From the NCBI GenBank assembly GCA_964248365.1, contig CAXTYC010000026.1, positions 10,658 through 74,657 on the forward strand: a stretch of DNA of 64,000 nucleotides, given 5' to 3'. The notes under the pieces were generated by a model. That model had not been told where the DNA came from. It did no database searches and saw only the letters and a list, made by a program, of their open reading frames with translations. Of the stretch, positions 32,764 through 45,811 are shown one piece after another (positions within the stretch are counted from its first letter, which is position 1; each line of letters opens with the position of its first letter). The position numbers and the translations under genes were made by a program. The DNA comes from an uncultured Chroococcidiopsis sp. (GTDB lineage: Bacteria; Cyanobacteriota; Cyanobacteriia; Cyanobacteriales; Chroococcidiopsidaceae).

Positions 32764-32837
32764 CGGGATGTAGCGCAGCTTGGTAGCGCACTTCGTTCGG
32801 GACGAAGGGGCCGCTGGTTCGAATCCAGTCATCCCGA
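32764..32837 (+). tRNA. tRNA-Pro (anticodon CGG)
   Basis: CGGGATG...CATCCCG acceptor stem, anticodon arm CTTCG-TTCGGGA-CGAAG, GGTTCGAATCC T-loop; no encoded CCA. Confidence 0.97.
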
Positions 32838-32848
32838 TTGGTCTAAAA

Positions 32849-32907
32849 TGTCGATTATCAAATTATTTGTCTGCGATGACATATTGTTGTCCACAATTCA
32901 ATTGTCA
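32849..32907 (+). repeat. CAST left end: terminal TGT plus three TnsB-site-like repeats
   Basis: TGTCGAT-TATCAAATTATTTGTCT-GCGA-TGACATATTGTTGTCC-ACAATTCAATTGTCA, similar to V-K ends as recalled (TGTACAG-TGACAAATTATCTGTC...). Confidence 0.75.
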
Positions 32908-33007
32908 ATTATCAGCGTTTATTGTTCATTGATAATTGATAATTGTTCATTGATCGTTGATATGATAACTCCACCTTATTTATTTTGTAATTACTAAATC
33001 GGGGCAA

Positions 33008-33038
33008 TCCCGAAACATTGTGCGCCTTTCAACCCACC
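33008..33038 (-). CRISPR. Delocalised type V-K partial repeat plus tRNA-homing spacer (not an array)
   Basis: Minus strand GGTGGGTTGAAAG (3' end of V-K repeats) followed by GCGCACAATGTTTCGGGA, similar to tRNA-Pro 32786-32802 GCGCACTTCGTTCGGGA. Confidence 0.8.
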
Positions 33039-33057
33039 TTTTTCTTCAAAAGCTTTT

Positions 33058-33465
33058 GCTTTTGGGGGCGGAGTGTTTATTACTCTCGATCTGGAAGGGT
33101 TGAGGAGCGCAGTGATAGAATATTACCTTGGGGTAGAGTTGAGCGACGAGGAGCAGCGCTTGCTGTAAAGCAGCTTCATGCGAAGGAATCACAGGCGTGC
33201 ACTTCTTCGTGCGGTATCCCGACGCTTTATGTTGCAGTGGAATGGAGGATCGCTTTCGCTTGAACTTGTAGAGTTTGATCTGGACAGGGCGATCGCATCT
33301 CTAGAACAAGGTCAGCCTGTGATTCTGTGTATGGCTAGATCGGATTCATCAACGGATAGCAAGCAGATTTGTTGGGGTAGAGCGATCGCGCCACTACATT
33401 ACGTTTCCCGCCTTGCTAAGACAAAATCCTTCTTTCTTTGCATCTTTAAATCTAGGAGCAGATGA
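33058..33465 (+). pseudogene. Unidentified gene fragment with in-frame stop
   Basis: Frame of ORF 33178..33465 extends upstream through one TAA: ...VFITLDLEGLRSAVIEYYLGVELSDEEQRLL*SSFMRRNHRR... Confidence 0.4.
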
Positions 33466-33666
33466 GTGATTTGTATTTCTAATACTGCGGTAGCAGTTTC
33501 TCTAGCTTACCGACAGGAGAGCTATAACACAATCACGAGTTTTTTTGGAGATAAGGAATATGTTCAAGCGCAAGTTGAAGCATAAAAACGCACAACAGGG
33601 AATAAAACCTTTAATGTCTTCATTAGACCTACAATTGCATTGATTGAAAAGCCTGGTTGTTTTTTA

Positions 33667-33682
33667 TAGTACAAATATACTA
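33667..33682. promoter_or_regulatory. Possible LexA-box-like palindrome
   Basis: TAGTACAAATATACTA, one mismatch to the cyanobacterial LexA consensus RGTACNNNDGTWCB; just upstream of the ParB-MTase start. Confidence 0.4.
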
Positions 33683-33704
33683 ATTAGCTGTTAACTTAAT
33701 TAGT

Positions 33705-35093
33705 GTGATTGCAGTGATTGACCTAAAGTATCATCCCTATGTTTATCTTTTTCCTTGCTTAAACAAACAGGAGTTTGAAGACCTCAAAAAAGACATAGTA
33801 GCTAATGGACAGGGAATCCCTATAACAGTCCTGGCAAGGACAAACCTTATTCTAGATGGCAGGCACAGATACGAGATTTGCCGCGAGTTAGGTATCCAAC
33901 CAAGAATTGAATATATTGCGCTAACCGCGTCGCAGATATTGTGGAAGGTGATTTCCCTCAATGTTAGAAGGCGACATTTAAGTGAGAGTCAAAGAGCAGC
34001 AATTGCAGCAAAAATCGCAAATATGCAACAAAGCGGAGACGGTAGCAATCAATATGCTGTTAAAAAATGTAAAGCAATGCAAATCTACACTTTTGCTAAT
34101 TCAAAGGAAGTGCCTTTAAAAGAAGCCGCTGAAGCACTCAATGTAAGTAGGCGGACGGTAGCAAGTACGAGAACGACAATAAACTGTTTTCCTGAAGTTA
34201 TAGAATATGTTATCAATGGCGATATTACTATTTTTGATGCCTATAAGGTAAAAGACGAGTCACCTGAAATCAAACAGGAAGTTATCGCTCGGTTTTGCCG
34301 AGACAAAGGGGCAGGGCGCAGAACAAAAAGATTAGCTCAGTATCGCAAAGAAATTAAACAGGAAATTGCCAAAAAATCCTTAGAGAAAGTGGTGAACAGC
34401 GTTTTAGGGATTGAGGTTGATGAAACCCCTCGTGTATCTTTTGGTGATGTTTGGCAATTAGGGCAGCACACGCTCACTTGCTGTGACTCCTCAAATTGGA
34501 ATGCACCGCAAGCTAAGCTAGCTTTCGCAGACCCACCATACAACGCAGGTATAGCTGATTGGGACACAGGGTTTGAGTGGAATCATGATTGGCTGATTGA
34601 TAAAGCCGATACAGTGGTCGTTACACCAGGAGATGAATCTTTTGCTCATTTCTTGAGAAAAACCTCGATGCCCTACAAGTGCATGATTGCCCACTGGATT
34701 AAAAATGGTATGAGCAAAAGCCCAATGGGTTATGGCAATCACATCATTGCTGCTGTATTTTGTAAAGAATCTACTCCTTATAAAGTAACAGGGAAGCGCA
34801 ATCAAAACTACTCTGAAAGTATTATCAAAGCGATAGAAGCTGATGACACCGACCATGCAGGTAGAAAACCACTGGATTTTATTGTGACCTGGATTGACAG
34901 ATTAACCAATCCAGGGGAAGTGGTAATAAATCCATTTTTGGGGAGTGGAACCACTTTAATAGCTGCTGAACAGATTGGCAGGATTTGTCATGGTGCTGAA
35001 ATCAATCCTGAATACTGTGGTTTTATTTTAGCGAGATGGATTAGTTTAGGAAAAGAAAATCCCAAAAAAATTAGAAGCCTAGTTGACGCTTAA
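33705..35093 (+). CDS. ParB/Srx-like domain + HTH fused to an amino-(N6A/N4C) DNA methyltransferase
   Basis: ILDGRHR ParB motif, RRHLSESQRA, EAAEALNVS HTH; FADPPYN (motif IV) precedes NPFLGSGTT (motif I), beta-class order. Confidence 0.85.
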   Translation: MIAVIDLKYHPYVYLFPCLNKQEFEDLKKDIVANGQGIPITVLARTNLILDGRHRYEICRELGIQPRIEYIALTASQILWKVISLNVRRRHLSESQRAAIAAKIANMQQSGDGSNQYAVKKCKAMQIYTFANSKEVPLKEAAEALNVSRRTVASTRTTINCFPEVIEYVINGDITIFDAYKVKDESPEIKQEVIARFCRDKGAGRRTKRLAQYRKEIKQEIAKKSLEKVVNSVLGIEVDETPRVSFGDVWQLGQHTLTCCDSSNWNAPQAKLAFADPPYNAGIADWDTGFEWNHDWLIDKADTVVVTPGDESFAHFLRKTSMPYKCMIAHWIKNGMSKSPMGYGNHIIAAVFCKESTPYKVTGKRNQNYSESIIKAIEADDTDHAGRKPLDFIVTWIDRLTNPGEVVINPFLGSGTTLIAAEQIGRICHGAEINPEYCGFILARWISLGKENPKKIRSLVDA

Positions 35094-35118
35094 AAAATTA
35101 CGGTGCATCCTGGCATAA

Positions 35119-35996
35119 AACTATTATAAATCTGCGGCTCAACTAATAGTTCTCAGCCTATCGCAGGAATGAGACTTAAAAGTTGAGAGCAAATCCTTTT
35201 GTCTACTTGAGGTTGAAATTCATGAAACAGTAAGATATGCTTGTGATTCAAATCATTGGGTCATGTATGATGGCAGCTTTACTTCACTAAATTGGGATTT
35301 ATGTAAGTTTGCTGCATCTATGCCTGATGATTTGGATGGTTCACTAGATGACCCAGATTTTTTAGAATGGGAATTAGTAAAAGATTGTTATCGCCGCTGT
35401 TTACTAAGTGTTGACTCTGATTGGTTCACAATTTTCGGTCAGCCTGATGTCAAAGGTGTTAATCGTCTAATTTCACTAAGTAAAAAGGGTAACAGCAAAT
35501 ACTATTCTCGAAAGCTGAAAGCACTAAGCGGTATTACAGACAATGCTTTCCGTCCATCTGACAAGCTTATCTTGGGCTTGATTTTGCAGCCTGATGAATA
35601 TACATCTCCTGTTTCTTACGAGCAACTTTTTGAAGACTCTCATGGTTCAAAGGTTCCTGGCTATGGTAAGCCACACACAGGCAAGAATCACAACTTAGAA
35701 AAGCAGCACGATTCGGTAGAAGTAACTTTCAAGAATATGCGAATCGTCAACTTTCGCCCTTGGGCTTGGTCGCCTGTAATGACGATTCATTATAACAAAA
35801 CTGCTTGCAAGCTAGAAGAGGTTTTTGGAGTTGTCAAAGCTCAGACAAAAACCAGAAGTGTGATGAGCCAATGCCCTTATATCTTGCAGATTTGCTATCA
35901 AAACAAGCTTCAGCCGTTATTAAACTCTACGGCGAAATTAATGTTGGGCGTTATCCCAAACTCTTTAGAGCATTTCGTACTTCTGTAAGGAAATAA
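35119..35996 (+). pseudogene. NurA-like nuclease, 5'-truncated and frameshifted
   Basis: E...WVMYDGSF and LISLSKK motifs; in-frame TGA at 35170; -1 shift near 35865 restores VMEPMPLYLADLLSK, ending at 35996, 2 bp before herA. Confidence 0.6.
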
Positions 35997-35998
35997 TC

Positions 35999-37630
35999 AT
36001 GATAACCGACCTAAAACAAGATTTTGTTGCCACAGTCAATTCTTATAAAAAGGGTAAGTTACACGTTACCATCCTTAACCGTGCTAAAAACCGCAGCATA
36101 TCTGGCAAACTCTGCGAACTACTGATTAACTCCGACATAGGAAAACAGCGGGTTCTCTGCCGTATTAATCGTGTGGATATGACAAACGTTATCCACGAAA
36201 GTCTAGAGTTTCAGCAATTGCTTGCCGAGGATGGACATCTACCGTATTATTCGGGCGACTGCGATATTCTTAGTGCTGAAGTTGAGACAATAGCTTGCAT
36301 AAGAGCTTCTGACTTAGTTTTTTCCGCAATAGCTTGTCCTCCCAAATCTGGTACACAGTTACGAGTTTTACATGATTGTGAAGTAGCTGATTACCAAGTC
36401 GAAAAAACTCATCAAGCAGTGATTGGACACTTACCTGATGAGTCAGCAATGCCAATGTCAGTAATTAACCGCCACTTTAGCGAATGGGATAATGGTGGTT
36501 ACGGTGAGGCAAAACACACTTGTATTTTTGGTCAAAATGGTTCAGGAAAAACTGTTTTAGCCCTAGCGTTAATTGCTACTCAGCTTGCAGCTAATCCACA
36601 AAAAGGGTGCTTGATTCCAGATACTGCTGGAGATATTGCCAAAGGTGGCTCACATTCTAAGGGCGATTTTAAGTTCAACTTTATTGAGTTACTGGAAAGT
36701 GCAGGACGACATCCTGAATATATCGGTATTCAGGAAATCAGGTTAACTAGCAAAACCTCATTCAAGCAGCTACTTAACCCTGTCCTTAGAAAGGCTTTAA
36801 ATATGCATGGGGAAAAGTCAGAGCAGCTTGCTGACAGGGTAACAGAAGAGTTATTTGACCGACAAGTAGACCTGGCAGTTGCACAACCTAACCACATTCT
36901 TAACGCCGTCATTGACCGTATTGCCTCAATTTATACTGGTGCCAAGCGCAGGGAAAAAGAAACTGAGGCTGAAGAAATCAGGGATAATGCAGCTCAGAAT
37001 CGCTCATTTGTCCGAGCTTACACTAGTGGTGTGATGAAGTACTTTGAGGGAAAATACAGCATTGACGAGATTGTTCAAGGCTTCCTAGATAACGGGCGCA
37101 TAATCCTGCTTAATATGGCAACCATGTCTGAGTCAGAACAGCGATATGTAATGTACGAAGTCTTTAGTAAAGTCAAACGTAAGGCAGAAGAAGATTTCAA
37201 ACGTTATGGAACCACGCGCAATGGTTTAGTCGTCTTGGATGAGGGTCCACGATGGGCACCTCAAAGTGGTGATGATGAAGTTACCCAAGTAATTCGTGAC
37301 GCTTTTAACACCACTCGTAAGCTTGGCGTGGGTTGGATGATAATCTCCCAACGTATCACCGCGATTAGTAAGGATATTATTGCCCAGTGCCATACAAAAT
37401 TTGTCGGTCGCGGTATGGGTATCGGTGCAGACCGCGATTACATGAAAGAATTTTTCCGTGAGGATGGACTAGTCATGTACGACCAGTTAAGCCTAAGAGG
37501 CGGCTTCTACTGGCTTGTAACTGGGCATCAAGTCAACTACGGACAGGGTTCTCAATATGTCGCATTTGAAACCTTTAGTGGTGATTCGACGCAAGCGATT
37601 AAAAACGCTAATCCCCATATTTGGGAATAG
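35999..37630 (+). CDS. HerA/DUF87-family ATPase (helicase/translocase)
   Basis: GQNGSGKT Walker A, LVVLDEG Walker B, RKLG arginine-finger motif, ISQR sensor. Confidence 0.85.
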   Translation: MITDLKQDFVATVNSYKKGKLHVTILNRAKNRSISGKLCELLINSDIGKQRVLCRINRVDMTNVIHESLEFQQLLAEDGHLPYYSGDCDILSAEVETIACIRASDLVFSAIACPPKSGTQLRVLHDCEVADYQVEKTHQAVIGHLPDESAMPMSVINRHFSEWDNGGYGEAKHTCIFGQNGSGKTVLALALIATQLAANPQKGCLIPDTAGDIAKGGSHSKGDFKFNFIELLESAGRHPEYIGIQEIRLTSKTSFKQLLNPVLRKALNMHGEKSEQLADRVTEELFDRQVDLAVAQPNHILNAVIDRIASIYTGAKRREKETEAEEIRDNAAQNRSFVRAYTSGVMKYFEGKYSIDEIVQGFLDNGRIILLNMATMSESEQRYVMYEVFSKVKRKAEEDFKRYGTTRNGLVVLDEGPRWAPQSGDDEVTQVIRDAFNTTRKLGVGWMIISQRITAISKDIIAQCHTKFVGRGMGIGADRDYMKEFFREDGLVMYDQLSLRGGFYWLVTGHQVNYGQGSQYVAFETFSGDSTQAIKNANPHIWE

Positions 37631-37647
37631 ATGATTTCTAACCCAAC

Positions 37648-37680
37648 ACAAGCCCTTAAAACTTGTAAGGGCTTGTTTTT
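37648..37680 (+). terminator. Rho-independent terminator after herA-like gene
   Basis: ACAAGCCCTTA...TAAGGGCTTGT stem followed by a T tract. Confidence 0.75.
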
Positions 37681-37702
37681 CTTCTTCTAGTACTTGTAGC
37701 GC

Positions 37703-38030
37703 TTAAACCACTTTCTGCCACTTTATCATGTCCGCGAAGGGCATAAAGCAACGCTAACATATTCCATCTACCCCTAAAGCTGGGATTTTAAACCTTGCTC
37801 CGCAGTTTAGGCATTTTGACAGCAGGCTTAACTGGTGGCGATCTTGCTACCATTACCTTAAACTACCACGATGCTCCGGTGATAAGATGCTTGGGCAAAA
37901 CACAAGCTTCACACAAGCCAATAGGCTCTAGCTTTATGCCCATACCATCCGGCGGTAACATCTGGGCTAACCTATCTGCCCCTACTCCAACCACAACCGC
38001 TTTGCCCTAACTGCTGCCGAATAGGAGGAC
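37703..38030 (-). pseudogene. tniQ: TniQ (type V-K CAST) relic, C-terminal half
   Basis: Across frameshifts: PPIRQQL..AVVVGVGADRLAQMLPPDGMGIKLEPIGLCEAC ... DRHQLSLLSKCLNCGARFKIPALGVDGIC*RCFMPFADMIKWQKVV*, closely matching V-K TniQ zinc-finger regions as recalled. Confidence 0.88.
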
Positions 38031-38660
38031 TAGCAGACGTTCTACACTTGCTCAAAGTTAAAACTTGCCTCTTTTTCAGCACAAGGGGTTACGAAAAAGT
38101 TACGAAAAAGAGTCAGCCGTACCAAAGATCTATCGTTCCAACCCAAATACCTTGTGCATTTTGGTGCGCGACGTTTCGGGTAAGAGTACTCTTACAGATG
38201 CGCTCGCTTGGCTTTTTTGAGAATATTTGCAATAAGCCAGTATCCCAAGCCAAGCGGGTTCGGCGGCAAGAGTATTCTTCCCGCCGACACCGCGCACCAA
38301 AATGCCTAGTCTGACCAATTTTGAGCAGGTTTCATGCAGGGGCGCGATCGCGTACGTTTGACTGGATGTGTATCCAGGCAAAGTATCGAGTGTCAAATTA
38401 TTTGACCACTTGACATCTAAAACCTTGATCGAAAAGCTTGTCTCTTGATGAGGGCAAGGAATCCGATGTACCGACGGAAAACCCTGGAAATAAGCGATCG
38501 CACATCTTGAAAACTCAATTTTGTGCTAGTGTAGTAGAGATGAGAATAAAATTCGGTTGCAGCTTTTGTTTTTAGAATTGATAGGTTTTCCCCTTTTGGT
38601 CTTGACAGGCTTCTCTCCGAAATCTCAATCTCTACAACCCTCTGATTTTGGAGAAAATCT

Positions 38661-42967: not shown

Positions 42968-45811
42968 CTAGTCGATATTTTGTGTCGCCCCGCTAATCGC
43001 ATCCAACAAGAACAAACCCATATCTTTATGCAGTGCTTCATTATGCTGCGGACACCTGGTTGAATGTAGACACCTTGGACAACCCGCTTCACAATCACAT
43101 TCGGCTGCTAGGGCAATTGATGCCGCCGCAAATTTAGGTAAGTCATAGAAAATAGCTTCTGCTGCTCCATTACCACCTTCACAAGTGTCAAAAAAGTAGC
43201 CAATTGTTTTAGTCTGTTTTTGCGTTGTAACTATTGCGTCCACATCCAAACTAGAGGATAAAACTACCAAAGGTACAGCTTTTACTATCTGGTGCTGAAT
43301 GCTGTGCAGTGCTATAAAATCAGCGCTGCTAGTCCACAATGAAAGATGAAGTTCTGGAATTTCACCACTTGTTGAGTTTATAAGTTCTTTCTTGTATTGG
43401 TTAGCTTGTACTTGCAGGGCTTTTTGTAGGGGTTCATTTATTTCCACTAGGAGGCAGGGTGCTTGGTATTTTGTCACGTAAGGCGGATCAAAAGCCACTT
43501 CTGACTGAAGCAAAGTCACTTCAGCGGTGGACAGAGGATGCTTGCACTTTTGACAAGTTTTTCCTTCAAGCGGTTTTTTATAGTTAGCGCAACGCTGGCT
43601 TTTACAAGTCATTCCATAGGCGCGTTTCATCAAACGATAACCTGTAACTGAATTAGTAATTTCTCCCCAAACCAGAGTTAATCTAACCCGTGCATCTTTG
43701 ATGTTGGTAGGGACAATCTTGGATTGTGCCAATGTAGAAAGTGGTTGAATATCTAGTTCCGATTCGGCAGAGGTAAATAAATCTATATCTTTACCTAAAA
43801 ACGTTAGTATTGCTTCTTGTTTCTCTTCGTTTAGGCTCTCGCTGCGGTAGGCGATTAACTCTCCGTTTTCATCTTGCACTGTATATATTGCCCCAGGAAA
43901 TACCTCCCGATGGGCAAGCATAAGAGACATAGTTTCTAAGATTTCGCCCGTATGCTTGTCAATTAAGGAAATTGAAGTTTGAGTGCTGCTTCTAATATTA
44001 ATCTCTCTGTGAGGATAACCCCTGCTCCAAAGTTTTCCGTTGCTCGTTATAAAAATTTTGTTTTGTTGTAAAAGAGAATCTGCAATTGCTAGGGCTGCTT
44101 TTCCAAAACGGGTATTGAGTTGATTTAAAGGCAGGCTACTTTCAACGCAACCGCATTCTAAATGTTTGCCTAGAATTGTTGGATAGTCAGGGTTAAAAGC
44201 AGCACGTTCAACTTCGCCGGACAGTAACTGTTCGGGATGCCGAGCGTAGAATACATCAATCGGGTTTTGTGCCAAGGGTAGATAAATCACAAGTCCGTGC
44301 TGTTTGCGTCCAGCTCTTCCCACTCGTTGCCAAAATGACATTAAGCTACCTGGAAATCCACGAAGCAAACAGCACTCTAGAGCAGGTAAATCAATTCCAG
44401 CTTCCAACGAAGAAGTAGAAATAATTACCTTGATTTGTCCGTCTAGCAGTTTTTGAATAATCTCGCGGCGGCGATCGCTCCTCAAGGAACTGTAAAACAC
44501 CGCCACCTTGCTTGTTAAATAACCATTTCCTTGGCGTTGTGCTTCCCTTTGAATTAACCCCAGTAAACCTTTGACAGCAGCACGGGAATTACAAAAGACA
44601 ATACCACTAAGGTTATGCTGCAACCAGGCTCCTACAATCTTAGCAGCTTCGACATTAGCTGCATTATTTGGAGCAAGGCATAATAAGGTACGCCCTGAAC
44701 TAGGAGCGCCACTGCGCTCAATTAGGTGTAGTTTTTCAGGTTCGTTAGTTCTGCCACTAAACCTAAGCGCCATTTCTTGGGGATTGCCAATTGTGGCACT
44801 AGAGCAGATAAATTGCAGAGCGAGGGAATTACCGCCAACAGTATCAACAGCTAGGCGCAGCCTCCGCATCAAATTAGCCACATGAGCGCCAAAAGCGCCA
44901 ACATAAGTGTGTGATTCATCAATTACTACCCAGCGCAACTGTTTTAAAAACTGTCTCATTCCTTCTTGTGATTCTCGCTGCCGCACATTGTAAAGATAGT
45001 AATGCAACAAGTCGGGACTGACTGCTAATATGTTTGGAGGATTGGGAATAAACAAGCGTATTCGTTCTTCTTTGGGTGTATCACCCGTCATTAATGCGAT
45101 TTTGAGGCAGTTGTTTGGCATCGCCTCCTTCAGCGATTGCAACTTTCCCATTTGATCGAGGGCTAATGCTTTAAGTGGGAAAATATATAATGCCGTTGTT
45201 TGCGGTTGCTCGATACACGATTCTAGAATAGCGAGGTTGTAGCACAGCGTCTTTCCACTTGCTGTCGGCGTGGTAATACTCAAGTCAAAACCAGCACGTA
45301 ACTTTGTCAGTGCTTCTAGTTGGTGAGAAAAAATGCTGACGATCCCGTTATTGTGCAACCCCAAACGCAAAGCCGGTGGTAAATCGTTGGGTATGGGGTA
45401 AACCATTCCTTGATTAGCATCTTTAATATCCACCGTCGTGATGGTTGCTATTAGTTCTTGAACTACAGACTGAAACGCCAAATGCGGGATTTGCCCAATG
45501 CGTTCGGAAATTGTTGCGGTTGCTGCACCCGTTTCTTCGAGCAACGGTGTTGTGGAAGAAATTCTGTTGGCATTACTCGGTTTAATCGATCCACGCGCGA
45601 TCGCTCTTTCCCAATCTCCAAATTGAGTTGGGTTGACTTCTTCAACAAACTTAGCAATTAACCGTCTGCCCAATATCCCCATTACTTCACCAACTCCATA
45701 CTCTGGCGAGTAAATATGCTTACCCACACTCAACCATTCGGGAGGAGGGGGAACAGTAGAGTTGGCGGCACGGATAATTGCGGCGTAATCAGTTGGTTTG
45801 TTGTCAGTCAC
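42968..45811 (-). CDS. DEAD/DEAH-box helicase with C-terminal DUF1998 (MrfA/Hrq1-like)
   Basis: TPTASGKT, VIDESHTY, SATIGNP, QRVGRAGR; FFDTCEGGNG and C.C..GCP.C zinc motif. Confidence 0.9.
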   Translation of the reverse strand: MTDNKPTDYAAIIRAANSTVPPPPEWLSVGKHIYSPEYGVGEVMGILGRRLIAKFVEEVNPTQFGDWERAIARGSIKPSNANRISSTTPLLEETGAATATISERIGQIPHLAFQSVVQELIATITTVDIKDANQGMVYPIPNDLPPALRLGLHNNGIVSIFSHQLEALTKLRAGFDLSITTPTASGKTLCYNLAILESCIEQPQTTALYIFPLKALALDQMGKLQSLKEAMPNNCLKIALMTGDTPKEERIRLFIPNPPNILAVSPDLLHYYLYNVRQRESQEGMRQFLKQLRWVVIDESHTYVGAFGAHVANLMRRLRLAVDTVGGNSLALQFICSSATIGNPQEMALRFSGRTNEPEKLHLIERSGAPSSGRTLLCLAPNNAANVEAAKIVGAWLQHNLSGIVFCNSRAAVKGLLGLIQREAQRQGNGYLTSKVAVFYSSLRSDRRREIIQKLLDGQIKVIISTSSLEAGIDLPALECCLLRGFPGSLMSFWQRVGRAGRKQHGLVIYLPLAQNPIDVFYARHPEQLLSGEVERAAFNPDYPTILGKHLECGCVESSLPLNQLNTRFGKAALAIADSLLQQNKIFITSNGKLWSRGYPHREINIRSSTQTSISLIDKHTGEILETMSLMLAHREVFPGAIYTVQDENGELIAYRSESLNEEKQEAILTFLGKDIDLFTSAESELDIQPLSTLAQSKIVPTNIKDARVRLTLVWGEITNSVTGYRLMKRAYGMTCKSQRCANYKKPLEGKTCQKCKHPLSTAEVTLLQSEVAFDPPYVTKYQAPCLLVEINEPLQKALQVQANQYKKELINSTSGEIPELHLSLWTSSADFIALHSIQHQIVKAVPLVVLSSSLDVDAIVTTQKQTKTIGYFFDTCEGGNGAAEAIFYDLPKFAAASIALAAECDCEAGCPRCLHSTRCPQHNEALHKDMGLFLLDAISGATQNID

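Follow-up and report, generated by a model that had tools for sequence, protein, structure and literature searches.

A likely fossil of a type V-K CRISPR-associated transposon beside a tRNA-Pro gene in an uncultured Chroococcidiopsis

The window analysed here is a stretch of 64,000 nucleotides (nt) of contig CAXTYC010000026.1 from an uncultured Chroococcidiopsis sp., and all coordinates are positions within it. Its single tRNA gene, found by both ARAGORN and Rfam, specifies tRNA-Pro(CGG). Behind this gene lies an island (32849-38415) with a transposon-type left end, a piece of CRISPR repeat with a spacer that resembles the tRNA gene, a broken copy of the regulatory gene cvkR, three cargo genes, relics of the transposition genes tniQ and tnsB and a fragment of a right-type end (Table 1). 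[quoted passage not shown] From these sequence features we consider it very probable that the island is the remnant of a V-K CAST, now immobile, that homed to tRNA-Pro(CGG) by means of a truncated guide and decayed in place. It is an ordinary kind of fossil with a readable record of decay; degraded V-K loci are known and are common. In what follows the window's own genome is G000 and its contigs are labelled C; other genomes are labelled G, extracted loci L and an independent sequencing run X1.

Table 1. Features of the island and its target site (window coordinates)
Feature	Position	Strand	Evidence
tRNA-Pro(CGG), homing target, host gene	32764-32837	+	ARAGORN and Rfam
GTA PAM (32783-32785) and 17-nt protospacer (32786-32802)	32783-32802	+	perfect spacers elsewhere
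Left copy of 7-nt direct repeat TCTAAAA	32842-32848	+	single copy, same offset, in L020 and L015
Left end, TGT terminus and two TnsB-type sites	32849-32891	+	matrix score, similarity to natural ends
Short dispersed repeat at expected third TnsB site	32898-32960	.	BLAST copies in own genome
Homing unit: 12-nt truncated repeat (33037-33026) and decayed 18-nt spacer (33025-33008)	33008-33037	-	repeat match, alignment to G024
cvkR (MerR-type regulator) relic, first 40 codons gone, frameshifted	33065-33389	+	tblastn, DNA identity
ParB-like/helix-turn-helix/N6-N4 DNA methyltransferase, 462 aa, open frame	33705-35093	+	PF01555, E 9e-15
NurA-like nuclease relic, 127 of 382 residues gone at the start, frameshift near 35865	35227-35993	+	tblastn, ESM Atlas
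HerA-like ATPase, open frame of 543 aa with intact Walker A and B	35999-37630	+	profile and sequence matches
tniQ relic, about residue 59 to end, frameshifts and stops	37706-38029	-	tblastn, DNA match
tnsB scrap (inner)	38029-38080	-	79% over 52 nt to L077 tnsB, E 2.8e-4
Structured dispersed repeat, about 260 bp, inserted in tnsB scrap	38085-38343	.	95% to C7:116888-117147
tnsB scrap (outer), encoding TLPGYT stretch	38344-38383	-	78% over 41 nt to L118 tnsB, E 0.016
Outer 32 nt of right-type end, reverse orientation, TAT replacing TGT	38384-38415	+	comparison with natural right ends
Right copy of 7-nt direct repeat TCTAAAA	38416-38422	+	flank comparison

The protospacer in the tRNA gene is matched perfectly by spacers at loci in G024 and G030 and in eight GTDB stretches. 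Its GTA motif lies 63 nt before the left end, just as the original prediction, made from the sequence alone, had it; this falls within the 46-82 nt expected between a GTN PAM and a left end and at the upper edge of the 48-63 nt measured in natural elements (n = 32). The left end itself is well preserved. It is 86% identical to natural V-K ends and scores 27.5 with a 23-nt end matrix that was seeded on other genomes and refined with 43 natural V-K loci; a score of at least 27.2 is reached by 7 of 11.16 million genome positions, all of them end-like. With a 43-nt left-end matrix it scores 44.7, within a natural range of 41.5-66.5. The TGT end at 32849 had been predicted to carry three TnsB sites, and two are clear (32857-32871 and 32878-32891); the putative third scores -6.0 and merges into the short dispersed repeat, for which the genome gives 50 BLAST matches within 32890-32970. 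A V-K-type end is present in 11 of 34 distinct flanks downstream of tRNA-Pro(CGG) genes and no end-like sequence occurs in the other 23, so the left end is not a normal tRNA flank, an objection that the original prediction had raised against itself.

The V-K repeat fragment with a tRNA-like spacer was also rightly called. Its 12-nt repeat piece gives one match against 0.02 expected, and its spacer departs from the tRNA target by three substitutions and one insertion, or by six mismatches if no gap is allowed. A homing match with at most two mismatches is found in 32 of 35 natural left ends, those that supplied the PAM distances given above; truncated repeat and tRNA-matching spacer are thus both present here, in decayed form. 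Because the 104 nt at 32961-33064 are 90% identical to the homing region of G024, whose 17-nt spacer is perfect to tRNA-Pro, decay explains the window spacer better than a target in another tRNA gene, for which inspection of the tRNA list gave no support. A resemblance of the spacer to an arm of the 260-bp repeat (14 of 18 nt) was judged to be due to chance.

At 33064/33065 the similarity jumps from the homing unit into cvkR, at about codon 41. This relic, absent from the predicted gene content, is detected by tblastn (E 3.6e-10) and is 77% identical in DNA to the cvkR gene of G010 over 327 nt. On the simplest reading a single deletion would have fused the homing unit to cvkR, taking with it the array, the tracrRNA gene, cas12k and the start of cvkR. 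In the window tblastn gave no match to cas12k, a single repeat piece stands for the CRISPR array, and Rfam found the tRNA alone, with no tracrRNA, although it may hold no V-K tracrRNA model. Two HIP1 octamers lie within the cvkR relic and none in the cargo genes.

At the far side of the island, the frameshifted tniQ that had been predicted in reverse orientation matches V-K TniQ strongly (tblastn E 1.4e-21, two frames, internal stops), removing the doubt whether any TniQ similarity would be found there. The protein match extends over 37706-37976 and the DNA match reaches 38029, leaving only the part of the gene from about residue 59 onward; a search of the genome with the Pfam TniQ profile missed this relic. 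About 95 nt of tnsB survive as well, so that tnsB and half of tniQ remain in the correct order and on the correct strand, and no tnsC was found in the window. A deletion at 38029/38030 would have joined tnsB to tniQ, removing the 3' part of tnsB, the whole of tnsC and the 5' part of tniQ. Read along the minus strand, the order is host DNA, the 32-nt end, 40 nt of tnsB, the 260-bp repeat, 52 nt of tnsB and tniQ from about codon 59. Since the two tnsB scraps are collinear, the 260-bp repeat inserted into them. The junctions at 33064/33065, 38029/38030 and, in the nurA-like gene, at about 35230 record three deletions; apart from the right border of the island, discussed below, deletion junctions here overlap by 1-3 nt, which shows that illegitimate recombination has acted in the island.

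The 260-bp repeat has partial copies on contigs C52, C28 and C17, and its predicted fold has a z score of -4.7. Copies in the window, on C7, C52 and C28 and at L155 make up a family of dispersed, strongly folding repeats of 200-260 bp, in which the ends are conserved, the borders G-rich and the inner hairpins variable. An autonomous parent with a transposase was not seen beside the copies. An origin from an IS607-type element is a possible lead. A HIP1 octamer (38344-38351) stands in the outer tnsB scrap at the border of the repeat, where relatives carry different codons.

Contigs assembled from another sample (X1) cover 32811-33654, with 32 other letters and 11 gaps, and 36014-38080, with 38 other letters. 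Both the left deletion and the one between tnsB and tniQ are present in them and are therefore not artefacts of assembly. A third X1 contig is 99% identical from 35231 on, while its first 163 nt do not fit; this hints that the deletion in the nurA-like gene is younger than the others. The island thus has what is expected of a relic and lacks what a functional V-K CAST would need, namely cas12k, tracrRNA, an array, tnsC and a normal right end. Most of these losses had been foreseen; tnsB had been counted among them, and scraps of it remain at 38029-38080 and 38344-38383. The predicted limit of 38422 was also too generous: the element ends at 38415, and 38416-38422 is flanking repeat. The layout on which the prediction relied (tRNA, left end, CRISPR, cargo, tniQ, tnsC, tnsB, right end) agrees with the published order.

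Tn7 relatives characteristically produce a 5-bp duplication, as stated in the accessible part of a 2024 review. The island is flanked instead by a repeat of 7 nt, and the last five nt before the island and the first five behind the island differ at two places. In two relatives without an end (L020 and L015) the 11-mer of the window's right flank occurs once behind the tRNA gene, at offset +4, with 11 and 10 of 11 nt identical, so the element boundary appears to be correct and the duplication to be 7 nt long. We compared this with natural junctions by pairing 50 cas12k/tnsB loci by eye; 43 were taken (3 were omitted for contig edges and 4 more were left out), 14 of the 43 were dropped for want of a detectable end, and 29 elements with both ends were counted. 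The overlap was 0 nt in nine of them, 1 nt in five, 2 nt in five, 3 nt in two, 5 nt in five, 6 nt in two and 7 nt in one. Among 812 shuffled end pairs an overlap of at least 5 nt arose in three and of at least 6 nt in one, against 3 of 29 natural elements with 6-7 nt; off-size overlaps are therefore real and not unique to the window locus. The modal PAM distance is 61-62 nt, and the only other element at 63 nt also has a 7-nt overlap.

These observations suggest a history in which insertion would have happened twice on different chromosome copies, once 63 nt and once 61 nt from the PAM (2 nt apart), with recombination between the two at a later time, the 7-nt repeat being a chimera of both. 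This is the reading that we prefer, with confidence that is evenly divided, slippage being nearly as good. By slippage, an appreciable if lesser probability, an ordinary 5-nt duplication (TCTAA) would have gained 2 nt in the A run beside the left end: a homopolymer run abuts the left end in both 7-nt cases (the window and G373), and the right junction would then sit at the modal 61 nt, but the two 6-nt cases are not simple extensions of a run at the junction and the added bases restore the sequence of the empty site exactly. Several points weigh against the chimera. The match to the empty site spans only 11 nt, and no relative was found in which tRNA-Pro adjoins the rbp gene; the other 7-nt case, G373, sits in a T run; and a clean 5-nt duplication was seen in only 5 of 29 elements while 21 of 29 overlap by 3 nt or less, which means that ends were often mispaired or that tandem arrays are reflected in the pairs. 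A tniQ/cvkR relic near an rbp gene in G019 proved not to be syntenic with the window and was set aside. A search of the literature, with subscription journals mostly not covered, yielded no account of natural V-K duplication lengths, of flipped V-K ends or of mini-elements with V-K ends, and in the accessible supplements of Ziemann 2023 (PMC9938897) the keywords 'TSD' and 'duplication' do not occur. A pair of V-K CASTs stands in tandem at tRNA-Pro in another genome (L049/L050; G024:C35:14857-46345), with a 5-nt junction common to both; only 4 nt are shared between the two outer flanks of the distal one.

The right border departs further from the norm. No normally oriented right end precedes tnsB; there are only 32 nt of such an end, reversed, that adjoin the middle of tnsB on the left and host DNA on the right. 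Read in reverse, they match without gaps 28 of 32 positions of the right end of G043 and of the ends of mini-elements in G014, and at most 21 of 32 in the normal orientation among the comparisons shown. The mean match to natural right ends (n = 36) is 21.8 of 32 reversed against 15.6 in normal orientation, and a right-end matrix scores 29.7 against -14.7, the natural minimum being 29.5. Of 36 natural right ends, 4 contain the 5-nt spacer word of the reversed end, and not one of 35 left-end spacers starts with it. The tnsB match picks up again precisely at the limit of the 32-nt alignment, and a terminus that abuts tnsB so precisely fits a joint made by TnsB.

On balance we favour a sequence of events in which TnsB would have joined a right-type end into the middle of tnsB in reverse orientation and a later deletion, at a shared GACA, would have removed everything from base 33 of the reversed end through the original terminus. 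The donor might be a sister copy, the element itself or some small element that is non-autonomous; it need not be the CAST, because this genome contains small elements that end in this way, and so does G014, where the end of a 249-bp element gives the match of 28 of 32. The case has its weaknesses. The terminus reads TAT and not TGT; the right junction is known from the window's own assembly and from no independent sequence; and 2 of 22 tnsB sequences, that of G043 included, have at the joint a 5-nt word matching the end terminus, and through this microhomology a join would be possible without TnsB. Target immunity, reported for V-K systems in the 2024 review as far as its accessible part goes, disfavours self-insertion into tnsB, for which the RNA-independent V-K insertion that George et al. 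describe, in the part of their account available, is a possible route.

The microhomology just mentioned is central to an explanation that dispenses with TnsB and that we rate as plausible though second to the first: a replication template switch between the short TGTC and GACA words, inverted to each other, of the right end, followed by a microhomology switch into tnsB. Microhomology is available at both joints (GACA on the host side, the 5-nt word in 2 of 22 tnsB sequences on the inner side) and the other deletion junctions of the island overlap by 1-3 nt, but had the join been made at the 5-nt word, 2 nt of the observed length, which fits the exact terminus, would be missing, no host flank was copied beside that terminus, and its terminal 8 nt are one base off the ends of the G014 mini-elements. 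It is improbable that the fragment is a cryptic right end at which a TnsB acting in trans read a near-palindromic site backwards, cut one base off register and brought the damaged element to this site with a true 7-nt stagger: the normal reading does start with TGT with the palindromic site 9 nt in instead of 8, the reversed end and the 7-nt repeat meet at the same junction, and the genome once held a second CAST with similar end sequences, but the normal-orientation score lies far below the natural minimum with a single site, normal ends also show overlaps of 6-7 nt, and all Tn7 relatives are said to share a stagger of 5 nt as a characteristic trait.

Taken at its widest, and only tentatively, the relic may record TnsB placing a right end into its own transposase gene through failed target immunity, or such an event caused by mini-elements of about 250 bp, with the 7-nt and off-size overlaps as insertions on different chromosome copies that recombined. 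If this were true, one could read from the sequence of such loci how the products of V-K transposition are processed in cyanobacteria, a step called a mystery in the accessible part of Hsieh and Peters 2021 (10.1101/2021.02.06.429022). The textbook duplication of 5 bp is often missing from natural V-K junctions, a point of relevance to how TnsA-less elements are processed in polyploid hosts.

Could the island still move? A search for helper genes, as the original prediction had envisaged, was made with 18 reference proteins and two profiles in the assembly (102 contigs, 99.97% complete) and gave no intact tnsB, tnsC, tniQ or cas12k, all matches being broken. A live non-autonomous element served by helpers elsewhere in the genome is accordingly very improbable: the left end is well preserved and a helper could have gone unassembled among 102 contigs, but every match to the four genes is broken, the right end is not canonical and the spacer has six ungapped mismatches where 32 of 35 natural left ends have at most two. 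Equally remote is the notion that the island was never a CAST and is instead a Tn7-like element of a non-CRISPR kind or an island of integrase type at a tRNA gene, for although cas12k, tracrRNA and array are missing from the window and the cargo cassette is also met with in places that lack CAST genes, the matches of the homing unit and cvkR largely refute it, V-K-type tniQ and tnsB follow in standard order and the 3' end of the tRNA gene is not duplicated at the island.

The broken matches outline further V-K remnants in the same genome. At a tRNA-Arg(CCG) gene, C22:3396-4975 holds a second decayed V-K CAST with a left end, a homing unit, a short array, a tracrRNA-like region and, behind an inserted transposase-like sequence, a fragment of cas12k. 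To this second CAST we assign C19:296-3201, where tnsB lies in three frames with broken tnsC and tniQ and an intact right end. An orphan, well-preserved left end (C51:2140-2328) stands beside a degenerate tRNA-Val-like sequence and an integrase-like open reading frame (ORF), cut off by an inserted transposase-like sequence. Mini-elements of about 230-250 bp with V-K-type TGT ends occur at C4:250792-251019 (also at 251611) and C11:~74800-75040, and, in several copies, in G014 (L152:1501-1749), one copy with a 27-nt end fragment in tandem; tblastn found no tns genes near them. They are possibly non-autonomous elements moved by a CAST-type TnsB, to judge by their ends, and small elements of this kind could be mobilised by CASTs or inactivate them. 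V-K-type TGT ends are also seen on the mini-elements L146, L147 and L150. A smaller relic at tRNA-Pro in G030 (L016/L051) consists of a left end and a homing unit that is perfect; no CAST ORF could be recognised in the next 19 kb, and a further pair of tniQ and cvkR relics lies in G019 (L181:5536-8304), without matches to cas12k, tnsB or tnsC in 12 kb.

The cargo is a conserved methylase-NurA-HerA cassette, now partly broken, so the original view that the element had kept its cargo holds for the flanking genes and not for the nurA-like one. Its 241-codon ORF is by tblastn the remnant of a 382-aa NurA-like protein. The model of an intact homologue (P0002; pLDDT 80.6) matches NurA structures, best 2ygk (E 1.3e-9), and also a chain of the TdpAB complex (PDB 8wfd, E 4e-4). 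In motif I of the methylase an Asn replaces the Asp present in all 16 close homologues checked, a change that could impair the enzyme. For the HerA-like ATPase the NCBIfam HerA models give at most 30 bits against cut-offs of at least 800, and PADLOC gives matches to mad8 (E 7e-18) and HerA (E 7e-11) and none for the nurA fragment; compared with known HerA anti-phage systems, the locus does not combine a score above a curated cut-off with the cognate partner gene.

The order methylase then nurA-like recurs in 4 of 4 metagenome loci, with herA next in the three that extend far enough, and tblastn detected no CAST genes in these four. The same three-gene order can be read from the ORF lists of G261, G229 and G038. 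The cassette is rare: counting the window's own genome, 2 of 401 genomes from the order have the nurA-like gene and 4 of 401 from the phylum have the herA-like one, and the NurA-like protein had no plasmid match. We predict that the cassette is a DNA-processing unit for defence or DNA transfer, and it is a candidate module of either kind; our literature search found no account of a methylase-NurA-HerA cassette as an anti-phage system. The distant cassette of G038 (L144:3064-10423) lies near a 630-aa ORF that by eye resembles TnsD/TniQ. Given this neighbourhood, the cassette may ride other Tn7-like elements too.

The closest published likeness to the cassette is the tdtA operon of ICEth1 in Thermus thermophilus HB27 (Blesa 2017, PMC5365140, accessible part), an element inserted in a tRNA gene in which a nurA-like gene directly precedes an FtsK-HerA-type ATPase and a PF01555 methylase is present. 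The relic likewise has a nurA-like gene, here broken, directly upstream of a HerA-family ATPase; its methylase is ParB-fused and upstream, and that of ICEth1 is downstream. ICEth1, to which the cassette is likened by gene content, also has a type IIG restriction enzyme, a XerC-type integrase and 47-bp repeats, for none of which the island has room or an ORF, its carrier being a CAST. The match to TdpAB suggests a second comparison, with TdpABC (An et al. 2025, known in part via PMC12914056), in which tdpC serves phosphorothioation; the relic cassette has a base methylase, and no search was aimed at TdpC. The methylase, nuclease and ATPase of the relic stand in the arrangement described above. 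TdpABC likewise has a modification gene next to a nuclease-ATPase pair.

Among V-K CASTs, those of Hsieh and Peters 2021, in the accessible text, have like the relic a GTN PAM in a tRNA gene, a repeat of about 13 nt with a 17-nt spacer near the left end, and decay that keeps the end. Their catalogue holds 282 fairly intact cas12k genes, 152 with proximal tnsBCQ, the rest being read as degradation, and it was seeded on cas12k of at least 500 aa; a relic without cas12k falls outside it, and catalogues seeded in this way will miss such elements, whose decay can be read junction by junction from an end, a guide and scraps of pseudogenes. Flipped ends or off-size duplications were not seen in that text, supplements not covered. 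Ziemann 2023, as far as accessible, gives the order tRNA, left end, R* with anchor spacer, cvkR, cargo, tniQ, tnsB and right end, with 46-82 nt from PAM to left end, degenerated cas12k noted and restriction-modification cargo frequent; against those CASTs, the relic has cvkR fused to the homing unit by deletion and has no cas12k, tracrRNA, array or tnsC. The nearest sequences are the second tandem element of G024 (L049; homing region 90%), G010 (L117, L118; cvkR 77%) and G043 (L075; right end 28 of 32), all of which, unlike the relic, keep open frames of tnsB, tnsC and tniQ and normally oriented ends; the G024 and G043 elements carry other cargo, and that of G010 was seen in part only. Insertions within elements and inversions of ends have been read from duplications in the Tn6022 islands of Acinetobacter baumannii (PMC11014353, accessible part), natural Tn7-like elements that are TnsA-containing and non-CRISPR with 5-bp duplications, whereas the relic is of V-K type with a 7-nt repeat.

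Outside the element, the window encodes on the minus strand (42968-45811) a DEAD-box helicase of 947 aa that carries MrfA Zn-binding as well as HRQ1 winged-helix domains.

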